From a virus (Duplodnaviria; Caudoviricetes), in the IMG/VR virus record IMGVR_UViG_3300050151_000071, positions 1 to 64,000 of that record: a stretch of 64,000 nt of DNA. The stretch is one strand, 5' to 3'. A program made the translations under genes and the position numbers. The notes below the pieces were generated by a model that saw nothing but the letters and a program-made list of their open reading frames with translations, searched no databases and had not been told where the DNA came from. Shown in pieces: positions 6,679 to 40,223 of this stretch. Each line of letters begins with the position of its first letter. The first letter of the stretch is position 1.

Positions 6679-6806
6679 AGAAACTCCTCTGGTGCGCATC
6701 GTAGAGAGGCGTGAGGAGTGTTGTTACATTTGTAGAAGAATAAGCCAAGGTAACTAGTGTTGTCTTGCGCCCTTATTCTTAATCACTGTTTCCAGCAATT
6801 GGTAGT

Positions 6807-24536: not shown

Positions 24537-24697
24537 TTGAGCTCCTCAGCCAACTCTTCCAGGATACTCAATTCGTGCTTCAACTTGGAAATCCGTTGCT
24601 TTATGTCTCTGCGAGCTGAAAACTTGTATTCTTCTGGGCGTTTAGCGTAGTGAAAGGCCAAAGAATCCCAATATCGGGCTCGTACCTCATTCTTCAT
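24533..24697 (-). CDS. 54-aa hypothetical protein
   Basis: MKNEVRARYW...; overlaps both neighbours (ATGA); not in the ORF track. Confidence 0.6.
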   Translation of the reverse strand: MKNEVRARYWDSLAFHYAKRPEEYKFSARRDIKQRISKLKHELSILEELAEELK

Positions 24698-24899
24698 CGC
24701 TATAAAGTTCTTCCACGTCTAAAACCTCAAAAGAGGCCCCAATAGCTTTAGCTGTTCTTTCGAAGACTGAAGCTGCAGCTTCCATTCCGGAGGAAGCATG
24801 TTCGTCGTAGTTGGTCGAACCAACATCTACGCCATTAACAAAATAGCGTTCGCCATTTTCACGGTCGAACGCTCGTTTAATTAGAAATACGTGTGTCAT
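24687..24899 (-). CDS. hypothetical protein
   Basis: AAAGGA RBS, 70 aa. Confidence 0.7.
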   Translation of the reverse strand: MTHVFLIKRAFDRENGERYFVNGVDVGSTNYDEHASSGMEAAASVFERTAKAIGASFEVLDVEELYSDEE

Positions 24900-24919
24900 T
24901 GTATTATCCTTTAATTAAC

Positions 24920-25021
24920 CTCAGCAGTGAGACTTACACTCACATCGCGTCTTCGTAGGAACGCATCTTAAATCTACTCGCGTTTGCAATCATGAAGCAG
25001 ATCTAATTAGAAGATACTGAG
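24920..25021 (-). ncRNA. tRNA-shaped RNA motif, copy B
   Basis: CTCAGTA/TGCTGAG stem, TGC-9nt-GCA hairpin, CGCG..GTAG/CTAC..CGCG arm, GTGAG-TGTAAGT-CTCAC arm. Confidence 0.6.
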
Positions 25022-25055
25022 TTAAAACAGAGCCTAGGAACCTCTGCTTCGAAAT

Positions 25056-25171
25056 TGGAGCCGGCTCTGGGACTCGAACCCAGATCTGTTCCACCAAAGG
25101 AACCGTTTTGCGTTCATCCGAAGTGGTGCACCACTTTAATGGACTAGGCTTTCGTCTTAAACTAAACCGAC
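25056..25171 (-). ncRNA. tRNA-like RNA with ~50-nt D-loop insertion and 6-nt anticodon loop
   Basis: GTCGGTT/AGCCGGC+T+CCA, GTTT/AAAC D-stem, GTTCC-TTTGGT-GGAAC arm, canonical T-arm CTGGG-TTCGAGT-CCCAG. Confidence 0.7.
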
Positions 25172-25176
25172 ATAGT

Positions 25177-25274
25177 ACCAGCGGTGAGACTTTACTCACA
25201 TTCCCGATCAAGGATCTTATCTAACACTTGAGGGGTTGCGAAACCAAAGCATCAGATTATTAGAAGACACTAGT
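25177..25274 (-). ncRNA. tRNA-shaped RNA motif, copy A
   Basis: ACTAGTG/CGCTGGT stem, TGC-9nt-GCA hairpin, CCC..TCAAG/CTTGA..GGG arm, GTGAG-TAAAGT-CTCAC arm. Confidence 0.6.
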
Positions 25275-25278
25275 AGAT

Positions 25279-25354
25279 TGGAGTCAAGGGTAGGATTTGA
25301 ACCTACGTTTCCCGATGGGGGCAAAGGGTGTCCTAAACACTAGACGACCTCGAC
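25279..25354 (-). tRNA. Gly-like tRNA (U73) with aberrant C-rich anticodon arm
   Basis: GTCGAGG/CCTTGAC acceptor, canonical D and T arms, CCC-TTTGCCCCCATC-GGG arm. Confidence 0.6.
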
Positions 25355-25403
25355 AAACTGTTGATTCTTTATCCTATGTTCAGGATTTTTAATCAACAAG
25401 AAT

Positions 25404-27653
25404 TTACGGGTGGAATCCGATTTTATTTCGCTCAATCCCAGCAAGCTTATCTGTAGCTTCATCTTCGAGTTGTTGGAGCCATTCATCTGGGGTCAACTTC
25501 TTGTCTAAGATGTTGGCTTGACGCTTGACTGTAGCAAAGTCCCCAGGAGCGAGATACTTAATTTTTTCCAGTTTGTTCCGGATACGATCAAGTTCTTCTT
25601 GAGGAAGACCTTCACCCTCAAGCATTTGGCTTTCGTTGCACAGCATTTCCCAGCGTTGATCATCTTTGAGAGCTAGGAATTCAAGCTTGAAGGTGAACCG
25701 CCGAAGGGCAGCAGCATCAATATCTCTGAACAAGTTGGTTGCGCAGATAAAGATACCGTTGAACGATTCGATCTGTTGAAGCAACTCGTTAACTTGAGTC
25801 ACGTTCCATTCAGCTCGAGCCATCTGACGATCTCGTAGGAATGAATCAGCTTCATCGAGGAACAGAATAGCTCCCTCAGCTTTGGCTTCTTGGAACATCG
25901 CAGCGATGTTCTTTTCATTCTCACCAACGTACTTACCAAGAATATCCGATGCACGCTTCTTTAGCAGAGGCATGTCCAGTTCTTTGGCCATGTATTCGAC
26001 GAGCTGGGTTTTACCAGCTCCCGGAATACCATACAAGCACATTGTACCAGCTGGGCGCTTCTTGAGAGCTTTGATGATCTCGTCAGGCGTTAGAGCTCCA
26101 CGAACGTTAACGTAATCCAGAGAATACTTTGTGACACTATCACGAAGTTCTTCCATCGCTTCACGACCAAGGACACGTTGACTTTGAAGAACGACGTGTT
26201 TGAGGACATCCTGGGATTCAACTCGATCGTCTGTGATCAATGCTGTAATCGCTACACCCGACTTAACCTGACGTTCAGTTAACAGATGATACTTAGAGAG
26301 ATGCTCTTCTACGTCAGGATCCAAGTCGAGAGTAGACAAGACGTTCTTGACTTGCTCCAAGCGAGTCGCTCTCGATGCTGGCTTTACTTCCGCATGAAAG
26401 AGGAACCGACCAACGGTATCTTCTTTGATATATCTCGGATTGTTGGTGATCCAGAATGTTGGAACACCGTTCTCAGACAGCAGAATTTCATCTGCCTCAA
26501 TATCATCGCCAGTATTTTCATTTGCCTCAGCAAATCCGAACATGCTGGCAAACGATCTAGCCACACTAGAAAGCACATCGTCAGCCTGCTCAACAATCAG
26601 AATTGGAGACTTGGTATCTGTCTGATTGTACACTTCTTGAAGGAACCGTTGAGCAAGGAATGCTCGAGGGCCGAGATCACTGCGATTGACGCGCTTCGTC
26701 CTCAAGACGAAGATGTTCGCTTCATCTTTGAACGAAGAATAAATCGTACCCTTCTTGTCAACCGCTGAGTCGCCGTAGAACAGAACATTGACACCTGTTA
26801 TAGTGTCTTCGTCTTCTTGATTTTTGACATCAACAGCTGCCATAAGCCGCTTAATGATCGACAAATCTGTGGTAGCAATTGTACCAATTGAACCAGAACC
26901 ACTCATCTTCGGCTTCATTGGCTTTACGATCTGTGGGAACATAGACTGTTCGCCTTGAGGTACAGCAAAGAACAACGATGCAATATCCCTTGACATCGGT
27001 GGGAAAATACCGTGGTTGTAGTTGATCTTGACTAGACCAGACTTAACCAGAACCGAATCACTCGAAAGCTCGTCACCGTTGAAGAGAATGGTGAGAATAC
27101 GTTTCGTGGTTTCTTTCCACATCGCTACTCGAGCGAACAAACGATCATAGAAGATTTGGAAATCGGGACAGGCTGAGCGAAGGACTTGGAACTCAAGAAC
27201 GTCGATTTCAACTTCCGTCAGTCCTAGTAGAGCTGATACACTATCGATGTTATATTCGATAGTGTTCATACCCTTAGTATATTCATCCAGGGCATCTTTT
27301 TCTACTGTGCTCAGGAACTTCTTCCATTCATCCCAACCTTTTGCAGCATAATCAGCGTGCATTGAAGTTCCGGTATGGATGTTCATGATCAGTTGGGCAG
27401 TGACTTTGTCTTCGCCGTACAATCTCGTTAAGTTCTTTTGAACCTCACGGAGCTCTGTGCGCAACTCATGACTAGATGGAATATCCTTAGTTGGGATTTG
27501 CTCCCGGAAGAAAGGAGCTAACGCTGCGTAAGCCATCCCAAACAAGACTTCATCAGTTGTAACGACTGATCCGATTACATTATCTTGAAGAAGCCTTATA
27601 GTGTGCTTCGCAAGCTTCGCTCCTGGGTTTACTTGTTCCAGTGCCGGGTTCAT
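25404..27653 (-). CDS. AAA+ ATPase (one degenerate and one intact module)
   Basis: LYGIPGAGKT, LFLDEADSFL, ICATN and AALRRF; N-terminal module has a degenerate Walker A (YGDSAVDK). Confidence 0.88.
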   Translation of the reverse strand: MNPALEQVNPGAKLAKHTIRLLQDNVIGSVVTTDEVLFGMAYAALAPFFREQIPTKDIPSSHELRTELREVQKNLTRLYGEDKVTAQLIMNIHTGTSMHADYAAKGWDEWKKFLSTVEKDALDEYTKGMNTIEYNIDSVSALLGLTEVEIDVLEFQVLRSACPDFQIFYDRLFARVAMWKETTKRILTILFNGDELSSDSVLVKSGLVKINYNHGIFPPMSRDIASLFFAVPQGEQSMFPQIVKPMKPKMSGSGSIGTIATTDLSIIKRLMAAVDVKNQEDEDTITGVNVLFYGDSAVDKKGTIYSSFKDEANIFVLRTKRVNRSDLGPRAFLAQRFLQEVYNQTDTKSPILIVEQADDVLSSVARSFASMFGFAEANENTGDDIEADEILLSENGVPTFWITNNPRYIKEDTVGRFLFHAEVKPASRATRLEQVKNVLSTLDLDPDVEEHLSKYHLLTERQVKSGVAITALITDDRVESQDVLKHVVLQSQRVLGREAMEELRDSVTKYSLDYVNVRGALTPDEIIKALKKRPAGTMCLYGIPGAGKTQLVEYMAKELDMPLLKKRASDILGKYVGENEKNIAAMFQEAKAEGAILFLDEADSFLRDRQMARAEWNVTQVNELLQQIESFNGIFICATNLFRDIDAAALRRFTFKLEFLALKDDQRWEMLCNESQMLEGEGLPQEELDRIRNKLEKIKYLAPGDFATVKRQANILDKKLTPDEWLQQLEDEATDKLAGIERNKIGFHP

Positions 27654-39798: not shown

Positions 39799-40056
39799 TT
39801 ATCGGATATTCATATTGTTCCGTGGTGATCCTTTTGCAACTTTGTTGAGGACATCACGGAAGCCGTTATCAATTTTACCCATACCTAACATTGTTACAAG
39901 CGCAGGCGCTTGACCATTTGTGGTAGGCAGAGAGGTGCATATTAAAGTAGGGTTGTCTTTTAGATAAGCTTCCAATGCATCTGTTGATAATAGTTGCTTA
40001 GTTACTTCTTTGGTTTCTTCGTTCAAGAACTCGAAGAACTTATAGGTGGTCTTCAT
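39799..40056 (-). CDS. conserved T4-like-phage hypothetical protein
   Basis: TY.F.N.ET.EV...S....YLK.NP...D.GFRDVL.K. Confidence 0.7.
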   Translation of the reverse strand: MKTTYKFFEFLNEETKEVTKQLLSTDALEAYLKDNPTLICTSLPTTNGQAPALVTMLGMGKIDNGFRDVLNKVAKGSPRNNMNIR

Positions 40057-40223
40057 TAGTGTCTCGGTTTGTTGGGACGTGGTGTAGAATCGTTGTCGTC
40101 CTTACCTTCGAAGGAAGAGGAGCGGCCTTTTTCTTTCTTACGACGAGCATTACGTTCACGCTGTAGTCGTTGAGCCTTGTAGTATTCCGCGTCGTCACTA
40201 TTGTTGCGGAAAGTCTTACCCAT
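40056..40223 (-). CDS. 55-aa basic protein
   Basis: MGKTFRNNSDD...; overlaps both neighbours; not in the ORF track. Confidence 0.65.
   Translation of the reverse strand: MGKTFRNNSDDAEYYKAQRLQRERNARRKKEKGRSSSFEGKDDNDSTPRPNKPRH

Follow-up and report, generated by a model that had tools for sequence, protein, structure and literature searches.

The first 64 kb of a 75.9-kb viral contig (IMG/VR record IMGVR_UViG_3300050151_000071; CheckV completeness estimate 42%), referred to here as the window, carries on its minus strand a gene of 116 nucleotides (nt), positions 25056–25171, encoded CCA included, which is probably a tRNA look-alike. The reading to which we give about an even chance is that the phage here has a true gene for a tRNA mimic with five arms, one that does not decode, is processed like a tRNA and acts by imitation. 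The architecture of the gene is observed directly, as are its non-randomness and the presence of genes of the same design in many phage contigs.

All 21 stem pairs of the gene form and there is no mismatch. The 5' strand of the acceptor stem, GUCGGUU (25165–25171), pairs with AGCCGGC (25060–25066) at seven positions out of seven, two of the pairs being G-U, and the latter strand is followed by the discriminator U73 and the encoded CCA (the whole 3' segment lying at 25056–25066). U8 and A9 come after the acceptor stem. The 5' strand of the D-stem, GUUU (25162–25159), together with D-loop positions 14–19, AAGACG, occupies 25153–25162 and is aligned to positions 10–15 of the Rfam tRNA covariance model (RF00005); the 3' strand, AAAC, was placed at 25105–25108 by the same alignment. 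G26 then leads to an anticodon-type arm (25088–25103) with a five-base-pair (bp) stem, GUUCC/GGAAC, and a six-nucleotide loop, UUUGGU (25093–25098). A four-nucleotide variable loop, AGAU, separates it from the T arm, CUGGG-UUCGAGU-CCCAG (25067–25083), the T-loop of which is canonical. The gene therefore resembles a canonical elongator tRNA (RF00005) in its acceptor, D and anticodon stems, its T arm, its discriminator with CCA and its core tertiary positions, and departs from one at two points. The strands of the D-stem enclose 50 nt, against the usual D-loop of 7–11, with an additional arm at position 20, and the anticodon loop has six nucleotides, one under the universal seven; the 5-bp stem is perfect and no register yields seven.

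RF00005 matches the gene end to end (37.1 bits, model positions 1–71, E 2.9e-6 in a 521-nt search), as found in a permissive Rfam scan (E≤10) of 24900–25420. The gathering score of this family is 29 bits, and a score over that cut-off despite a 48-nt insertion is a point in support of a mimic. The covariance-model alignment reports the 48-nt D-loop insertion, with limits at 25109–25156, and an anticodon loop one base short, so that a tRNA-grade score goes together with the lack of both a seven-nucleotide loop bearing U33 and purine 37 and a D-loop of about 7–11 nt. The gene is listed neither by ARAGORN nor by the whole-window Rfam run at the gathering threshold. A sequence-only reading of this DNA had proposed a tRNA-like gene whose D-loop is expanded and whose anticodon loop has 6 nt, a proposal that the RF00005 score bears out; the details that it gave for the candidate (116 nt, the D-stem plan, a palindromic insert hairpin, a canonical T-loop, U73 and the TTTGGT loop) are all present, on the minus strand from 25171 to 25056.

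Chance was assessed with a strict descriptor, applied to both strands of the 75.9-kb contig, that demanded 21 of 21 stem pairs, a D-loop of 25–75 nt, an anticodon loop of 4–12 nt and a variable loop of 4–5 nt. On the tRNA-coding strand it returned only the candidate and an element read from 2706 to 2594, each followed by N-CCA. The third match, at 40005–40122 on the plus strand, has neither T-loop nor CCA and is a probable chance occurrence. Five shuffled genomes gave 0, 0, 0, 1 and 0 matches, or about 0.2 expected per shuffled genome, and the candidate architecture is non-random.

Gap-free numbering of the D-loop gives A14 A15 G16 A17 C18 G19 and, because this numbering ends at G19, the insertion falls at position 20. 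In the L-shape that position is a variable pocket on the outside of the corner, where ordinary tRNAs tolerate the extra nucleotides 20a and 20b. On this numbering, which we infer from the sequence and which sets G19 opposite C56, the core tertiary contacts U8-A14, A15-U48, G26-A44 and U54-A58 and the elbow pair G19-C56 would all be possible. The insert folds as a rod-like hairpin of about 44 nt, with three helices (GC/GC, GUCC/GGAU and AAGUGG/CCACUU) and a UGCA cap, and has a folding energy of -11.2 kcal/mol on its own; its outermost helix is a perfect 16-nt palindrome, AAGTGGTGCACCACTT, at 25136–25121 (minus strand). No second copy of the insert was found in the 75.9-kb genome, and a repeated mobile hairpin was rejected on the strength of this uniqueness. 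The cloverleaf with the rod has an energy of -32.2 to -33.6 kcal/mol, compared with -36.1 kcal/mol for the minimum-free-energy structure, and since the energy model ignores tertiary contacts a gap of 2.5–4 kcal/mol is ordinary for tRNAs.

An alternative cloverleaf was considered in which GUUU/AAGC forms the D-arm, the rod becomes the anticodon arm and the hairpin with the 6-nt loop a long variable arm. It was rejected because its 8-nt and 4-nt linkers misfit class II geometry and because the tertiary positions fit the arrangement of the covariance model only. The rod was likewise rejected as a second anticodon arm, given that it ends in a loop of 4 nt.

The proposal of a stable, tRNA-shaped imitator follows from the fact that the parts concerned with RNase P, with the CCA end and with recognition of the tRNA body are intact and the decoding part is not. 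Cleavage by RNase P would be at G1 and, with CCA already present at the 3' end, a stable tRNA-shaped RNA would result; the intact acceptor stem, T arm, CCA and core tertiary pairs would permit both the L-shape and maturation as a tRNA. The RNA would be non-decoding because a six-nucleotide loop is unable to present a normal anticodon. It would serve as a decoy or ligand for a factor that binds tRNA by its body; to judge from the surrounding genes, the likeliest partner would be either a tRNA-targeting nuclease or toxin of the host or the RNA-repair machinery of the phage itself. The fifth arm is the proposed functional addition: located at the elbow, it would block or recruit such a partner. 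The tRNA elbow is a stacking site for RNase P, the ribosomal L1 stalk and T-box leaders. One immune nuclease at least reads the D-loop as well: AriB of PARIS contacts U16–U17, and a single U16C change, such as occurs in a T5 tRNA, impairs cleavage (PMC12409363), which counts in favour of the mimic. Our best guess at the role of the RNA is a decoy or ligand in the phage–host conflict over tRNA.

The same design recurs outside this contig. IMG/VR was scanned with a pattern built on the commonest bacterial D-stem (UAGCUCAR, 30–58 nt, AGAGCR, 23–31 nt, GGUUCRANUCC), and at least 117 loci were found; a perfect 7-bp acceptor stem stands exactly where a tRNA needs one in 60 of the 115 matches listed. 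With long-variable-arm tRNAs and duplicated 5' fragments left out, at least 45 genes were kept, 43 of them with distinct D-loops. These 43 genes among the matches listed have 6–7 acceptor pairs, mostly all seven, and their anticodon loops comprise 19 of seven nucleotides, nine of six, eight of five and seven other arrangements; several of the shortened loops are UUCG or GNRA tetraloop caps. The hairpin lies right after G18 G19 in many of the genes, as in the candidate, and just before in one sub-family. ARAGORN calls none of the 45 viral genes among the matches listed (near-duplicates unmerged), and 17 of the 45 lie within 1 kb of an ordinary tRNA. Applied to prokaryotes (one genome from each of 185,579 species), the same pattern found at least 25 true D-loop-insert tRNAs, mostly archaeal among those with a record title shown, and the anticodon loop has seven nucleotides in all 25 listed. 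Loops of other lengths thus occur in 24 of 43 viral genes against 0 of 25 prokaryotic ones among the matches listed (Fisher p = 6.5e-7). Genes that combine an expanded D-loop with an unusable anticodon loop recur in phage contigs and are distinct from the intron-bearing tRNAs of archaea.

The candidate shares with 24 of these 43 genes the features by which the class is provisionally defined, namely an intact acceptor stem and T arm, a D-loop hairpin of 30–60 nt and an anticodon loop of other than 7 nt. It shows no sequence similarity to the viral set, which was gathered by a GCUC/GAGC D-stem, that of the candidate being GUUU/AAAC. When the D-stem of the candidate itself was used to scan IMG/VR, 78 loci were returned, among which only one (L031, 6961–7091, minus strand) has both a 7-bp acceptor stem and a D-loop-type insertion. 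That locus has two D-loop hairpins and, in the anticodon position, a 9-bp stem with a 9-nt loop; it ends in A-CAA rather than CCA and is unreported by the Rfam tRNA model. Long tRNA matches of another sort were rejected as candidate-like: two phage tRNA rows (L084, 83900–86800, and L085, 6700–8200) contain several matches of 113–122 nt, with inserts of 48–58 nt that lie in the anticodon loop and not in the D-loop. Long phage tRNA genes of this design are a different kind, and are also frequent. The viral class may have several origins, since its loci share no neighbouring protein.

In the decoding reading, which we hold to be distinctly improbable, the gene specifies a working but armoured tRNA: either opening of the closing C-G pair yields an 8-nt loop or a 6-nt one is tolerated, the RNA is charged and reads codons, with an anticodon of the UUG or UGG type or by frameshifting, and the elbow hairpin shields the molecule from host nucleases that read the D-loop. 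The encoded CCA and canonical core are as such a tRNA would have them, and the 19 of 43 viral genes among the matches listed that possess normal 7-nt loops with plausible anticodons indicate that decoders with an extra elbow arm appear to exist. A seven-nucleotide loop, U33 and purine 37 are, however, universal for decoding, and the candidate leaves six nucleotides in any register. Nor is there a recognisable identity set. U73 with G1-C72, U2-G71 and C3-G70 is, as we take it, a misfit to the identity rules of Escherichia coli for Gly, Cys, Pro and Gln. A blastn search of the 3' half of the candidate against phage records yielded generic T-arm matches only, and no isotype. In favour of such shielding, the PARIS nuclease AriB depends on D-loop contacts (PMC12409363).

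D-loop insertions of archaeal tRNA genes are known introns, and the candidate resembles those genes in having an insertion of 30–60 nt in the D-loop of an otherwise normal tRNA gene. Removal of 48 nt after transcription would restore a normal D-loop here too, and the predominance of archaea among the titled D-loop-insert tRNAs of the prokaryote scan agrees with such an origin. It would leave the 6-nt anticodon loop unrepaired, though, while the archaeal-type cases listed have 7-nt loops without exception (25 of 25). The archaeal endonuclease splices at a bulge-helix-bulge motif that the candidate lacks: by eye, the 4-bp helix of the rod is flanked by internal loops of 3x4 and 4x1 instead of staggered 3-nt bulges, and an archaeal-type intron was rejected. 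Group I introns are of about 200 nt or more, have a conserved core and usually interrupt the anticodon loop. An intron of that type was also rejected, as the insert has only 48 nt, lies in the D-loop and matched no intron model of Rfam when scanned permissively. Being T4-like, the phage presumably has a bacterial host. Excision is, on all of this, highly improbable.

One sub-family of the viral set (L094/L140, L173, L178 and L197) consists of genes with an almost identical tRNA body, in which the anticodon arm is reduced to 6 bp closed by a UCAC loop. The hairpin that lies between AGCAGCGCC and GGCCGGAUA of the D-loop differs from member to member, which gives the impression of a hypervariable site. 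One body with quite different hairpins at one site is what would be expected if the tRNA fold were a scaffold, providing stability and processing, for a cargo hairpin that is active as an aptamer, an operator-like palindrome or a small regulatory RNA. The perfect 16-nt palindrome in the insert points the same way, as does the fact that the candidate and its twin, the second descriptor match described below, share the frame and not the insert. On the other hand, the insert has no genome match usable as an antisense target, its terminal loop has just 4 nt and no neighbouring protein recurs across the loci. We regard cargo as a rather improbable function for the rod.

The twin of the candidate, at 2590–2706 on the minus strand, was found by the descriptor. 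It has the same architecture in 117 nt, with perfect stems, a 47-nt D-loop, a 10-nt anticodon loop, the T-loop UAAAAAU and A73-CCA. As the sequence-only reading had noted, it follows the same UA-GUUU...AAAC plan at nearly the same length (117 nt against 116), the frame being UA-GUUU ... A-AAAC in both; its D-loop hairpin is unrelated to that of the candidate. Position 19 is U and position 56, within the unusual T-loop, is A in the twin, in place of G19 and C56, which is suggestive of a compensating change at the same elbow pair, an anecdotal one as it comes from two sequences. There is no detectable sequence homology between candidate and twin outside the D-stem, and the Rfam tRNA model does not match the twin at E≤10. 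The argument that two independent instances speak for a functional class is therefore weaker than had been claimed. The idea of a functional class as opposed to decay holds in part: the perfect stems and the tertiary positions show no decay and the class recurs in other phage contigs, but the twin adds little to it.

The phage is a sequence orphan, with no relatives in the collections searched. A blastn search with 2.5 kb against GenBank phages gave no match, the neighbouring AAA ATPase and the CCA-adding enzyme found no relatives when used as queries in IMG/VR, and an exact 25-mer of the 3' end found no match. A loop-anchored pattern gave two matches in the metagenomes of the Joint Genome Institute (JGI), both of them ordinary tRNAs. 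The closest homolog of the AAA ATPase among 5.8 billion proteins has 37% identity and is encoded on a 396-kb contig without shared gene order. Phage DNA is present in leaf-litter metagenomes and in one freshwater metagenome, none of the listed runs being RNA; four partially matching runs provided short, low-depth contigs with zero differences from the window and hence no strain variation.

Several points weigh against a five-armed mimic. No orthologs of the candidate were found in any collection searched, which leaves neither conservation nor covariation for the locus, the chief weak point of every functional claim. Membership in the class rests on architecture rather than homology and the class is heterogeneous, with no recurrent neighbour protein found across the viral loci. 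The UGCA loop of the rod and the UUUGGU loop showed no resemblance to the known recognition elements checked. Expression, processing, the L-shape, the absence of decoding and above all the decoy role are features that we infer, and the first two of these count on the negative side. D-loop insertions can, moreover, destabilise a tRNA: E. coli tRNA-Tyr engineered to carry a D-loop hairpin, inserted between positions 16 and 18, failed to give stable expression (PMC5397188), though that site is not position 20, and the instability of an insertion at 16/18 fits the placing of natural insertions at position 20.

The genome is that of an uncultured, distant member of the T4-like group, encoding UvsX, Dda, a helicase and primase of the gp41/gp61 type, NrdAB, an Alt-like ADP-ribosyltransferase and an Rnl1-type RNA ligase; its UvsX has at most about 52% identity to any GenBank phage UvsX. 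Nearly all genes lie on the minus strand, as do the 13 ordinary tRNA genes called by ARAGORN. Other products of the phage include a CCA-adding enzyme and a DUF488 protein, and it has at least four further aberrant tRNA-like genes beside the candidate. The co-occurrence of aberrant tRNA-like genes, CCA-adding enzyme and Rnl1-type ligase marks it as unusually invested in tRNA-shaped RNAs and in tRNA repair, and this context speaks for a mimic.

The gene row at the candidate consists of tRNA-Met, the AAA ATPase, an odd Glu-like tRNA, a spacer element of about 105 nt, the candidate, a paralogous spacer element, two small ORFs and the DUF488 protein. The odd tRNA (25282–25354, minus strand) has a Glu-like body (UC-GUCU...GGAC-A), an anticodon stem of 3 bp with a 12-nt loop, and U73-CCA; it scores 44.4 bits with the Rfam tRNA model and has no ARAGORN call. 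The first spacer element (25172–25281, minus strand) lies directly between the two odd tRNAs and is by alignment a paralog of the second (24915–25020, minus strand), which ends just before the ribosome-binding site and ATG of a 70-aa ORF (24687–24899). Each odd tRNA is followed by one of the two elements, which have in common a 5' box, AGURUCUUCUAAU, as well as a 3' hairpin, GUGAGU..AAGUCUCAC, and are divergent in the middle. Structured RNAs are one possibility for them, and T4-type cassettes of promoter plus stem-loop are another.

This alternation of odd tRNA and paralogous element, twice over, would suit a relic kept for processing, that is, a tRNA invaded by a hairpin and deprived of one anticodon-loop base, of which the minihelix of acceptor and T arm serves as RNase P and 3'-end punctuation that releases the spacer RNAs or defines transcript ends. 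Both odd tRNAs keep the acceptor stem, the T arm and CCA, and in both the anticodon arm is defective. By annotation, the stable RNAs rnaC and rnaD of phage T4 are co-transcribed with tRNAs, alongside which they are processed. Punctuation, though, needs the minihelix alone, yet five tertiary positions are intact along with the stems of the D and anticodon arms, and there are no mismatches in 21 pairs. No recognisable parent exists among the 13 ordinary tRNAs of the phage; a global alignment of the insert-free core to these and to the four odd tRNAs pointed to no clear parent. A D-loop hairpin with a shortened loop also recurs in unrelated phage contigs. A processing relic is on balance unlikely.

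The T4 genes rnaC and rnaD (species 1 and 2 RNA) resemble the candidate in setting, being non-coding genes of 119–139 nt in the tRNA row of a T4-type phage, and rnaC has a tRNA-like T arm and an acceptor-like end. Unlike the candidate, they have no full cloverleaf: their best Rfam match is to tRNA-Sec at 17.5 bits, far under the cut-off, and their similarity to the candidate is confined to the T-loop. Homology to rnaC or rnaD was rejected, as only chance or T-loop matches of 7–13 nt were found.

YrlA (RF02553) was considered as well, since it is a non-decoding tRNA mimic of genomes with a Ro60-type protein and this phage has a phrog_850 protein and a partial YrlA match about 46 kb away from the candidate. 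It was rejected: there is no match to the model at E≤10 in 24900–25420, and the ends of YrlA form the Ro-binding stem, with the tRNA-like module internal, whereas the ends of the candidate form an acceptor stem with CCA. No transfer-messenger RNA was found in the window by ARAGORN or Rfam, and ARAGORN together with the permissive Rfam scan excluded mascRNA for the candidate. The partial YrlA match (34 bits, under the cut-off) lies beyond the window and overlaps a tRNA match of 144 nt (contig positions 70974–71117, minus strand; 34.9 bits) that has a Leu-like D arm and in which 85 nt replace the anticodon and variable region; this tRNA match adjoins the gene for the phrog_850 'RNA-binding protein' (71445–72911). 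A second tRNA match beyond the window (72943–73023, minus strand; 81 nt, 37.3 bits) has no D arm, an anticodon-type arm with the loop CUUCGAA and 21 unpaired nucleotides before the T arm. Both of these aberrant genes adjoin the phrog_850 gene.

A scan for promoters and terminators beside the candidate gave nothing convincing. By eye, a weak TTCGCA-N17-TAAGAT is seen in the spacer upstream, and 10 nt past the CCA, at 25015–25045 (minus strand), there is a 7-bp hairpin, AGCAGAG/CUCUGUU, which has the palindrome CCUAGG in its loop, is followed by U's and may be a weak terminator. A 73-aa ORF (24990–25211) overlaps the candidate and has no family match. Elsewhere in the tRNA-rich region, Rfam reported above the cut-off an abiF RNA motif (6683–6718, minus strand), directly upstream of tRNA-Val, and a skipping-rope RNA motif (15219–15355, minus strand).

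The tRNA is a main battleground between phages and bacteria, where hosts deploy tRNA cutters such as PrrC, RloC, PARIS and retron effectors and phages are known to answer with repair enzymes and replacement tRNAs. Mimics of tRNA as such are already known in phages, and the candidate is of interest mostly as a member of what looks like an unannotated class: D-loop-expanded genes in which a hairpin often follows G18 G19, the acceptor stem and T arm are intact, the anticodon loop is often shortened or capped and ARAGORN makes no call. No published description of such a class was found, though absence in a library search is weak evidence. We put forward, tentatively and with more doubt than conviction, that large phages carry a widespread, annotation-missed class of five-armed, non-decoding tRNA mimics, with a hairpin at position 20 beside the G19-C56 pair and a capped anticodon stem, which would act as decoys or inhibitors of host immune nucleases and toxins that read the tRNA body or as ligands for phage RNA-repair particles; the candidate and its twin would be two members in one genome. 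A single crude pattern yielded dozens of viral genes, over half of them with unusable anticodon loops, against none among the cellular look-alikes listed. Because ARAGORN called none of 45, such genes are likely absent from standard phage tRNA counts. The elbow that carries the additional arm is a contact site of RNase P, of the ribosome and of at least one immune nuclease and, if the reading is true, phages would have a third type of answer to the cutting of tRNA, in the form of a non-decoding, tRNA-shaped RNA that bears one more arm at the elbow.

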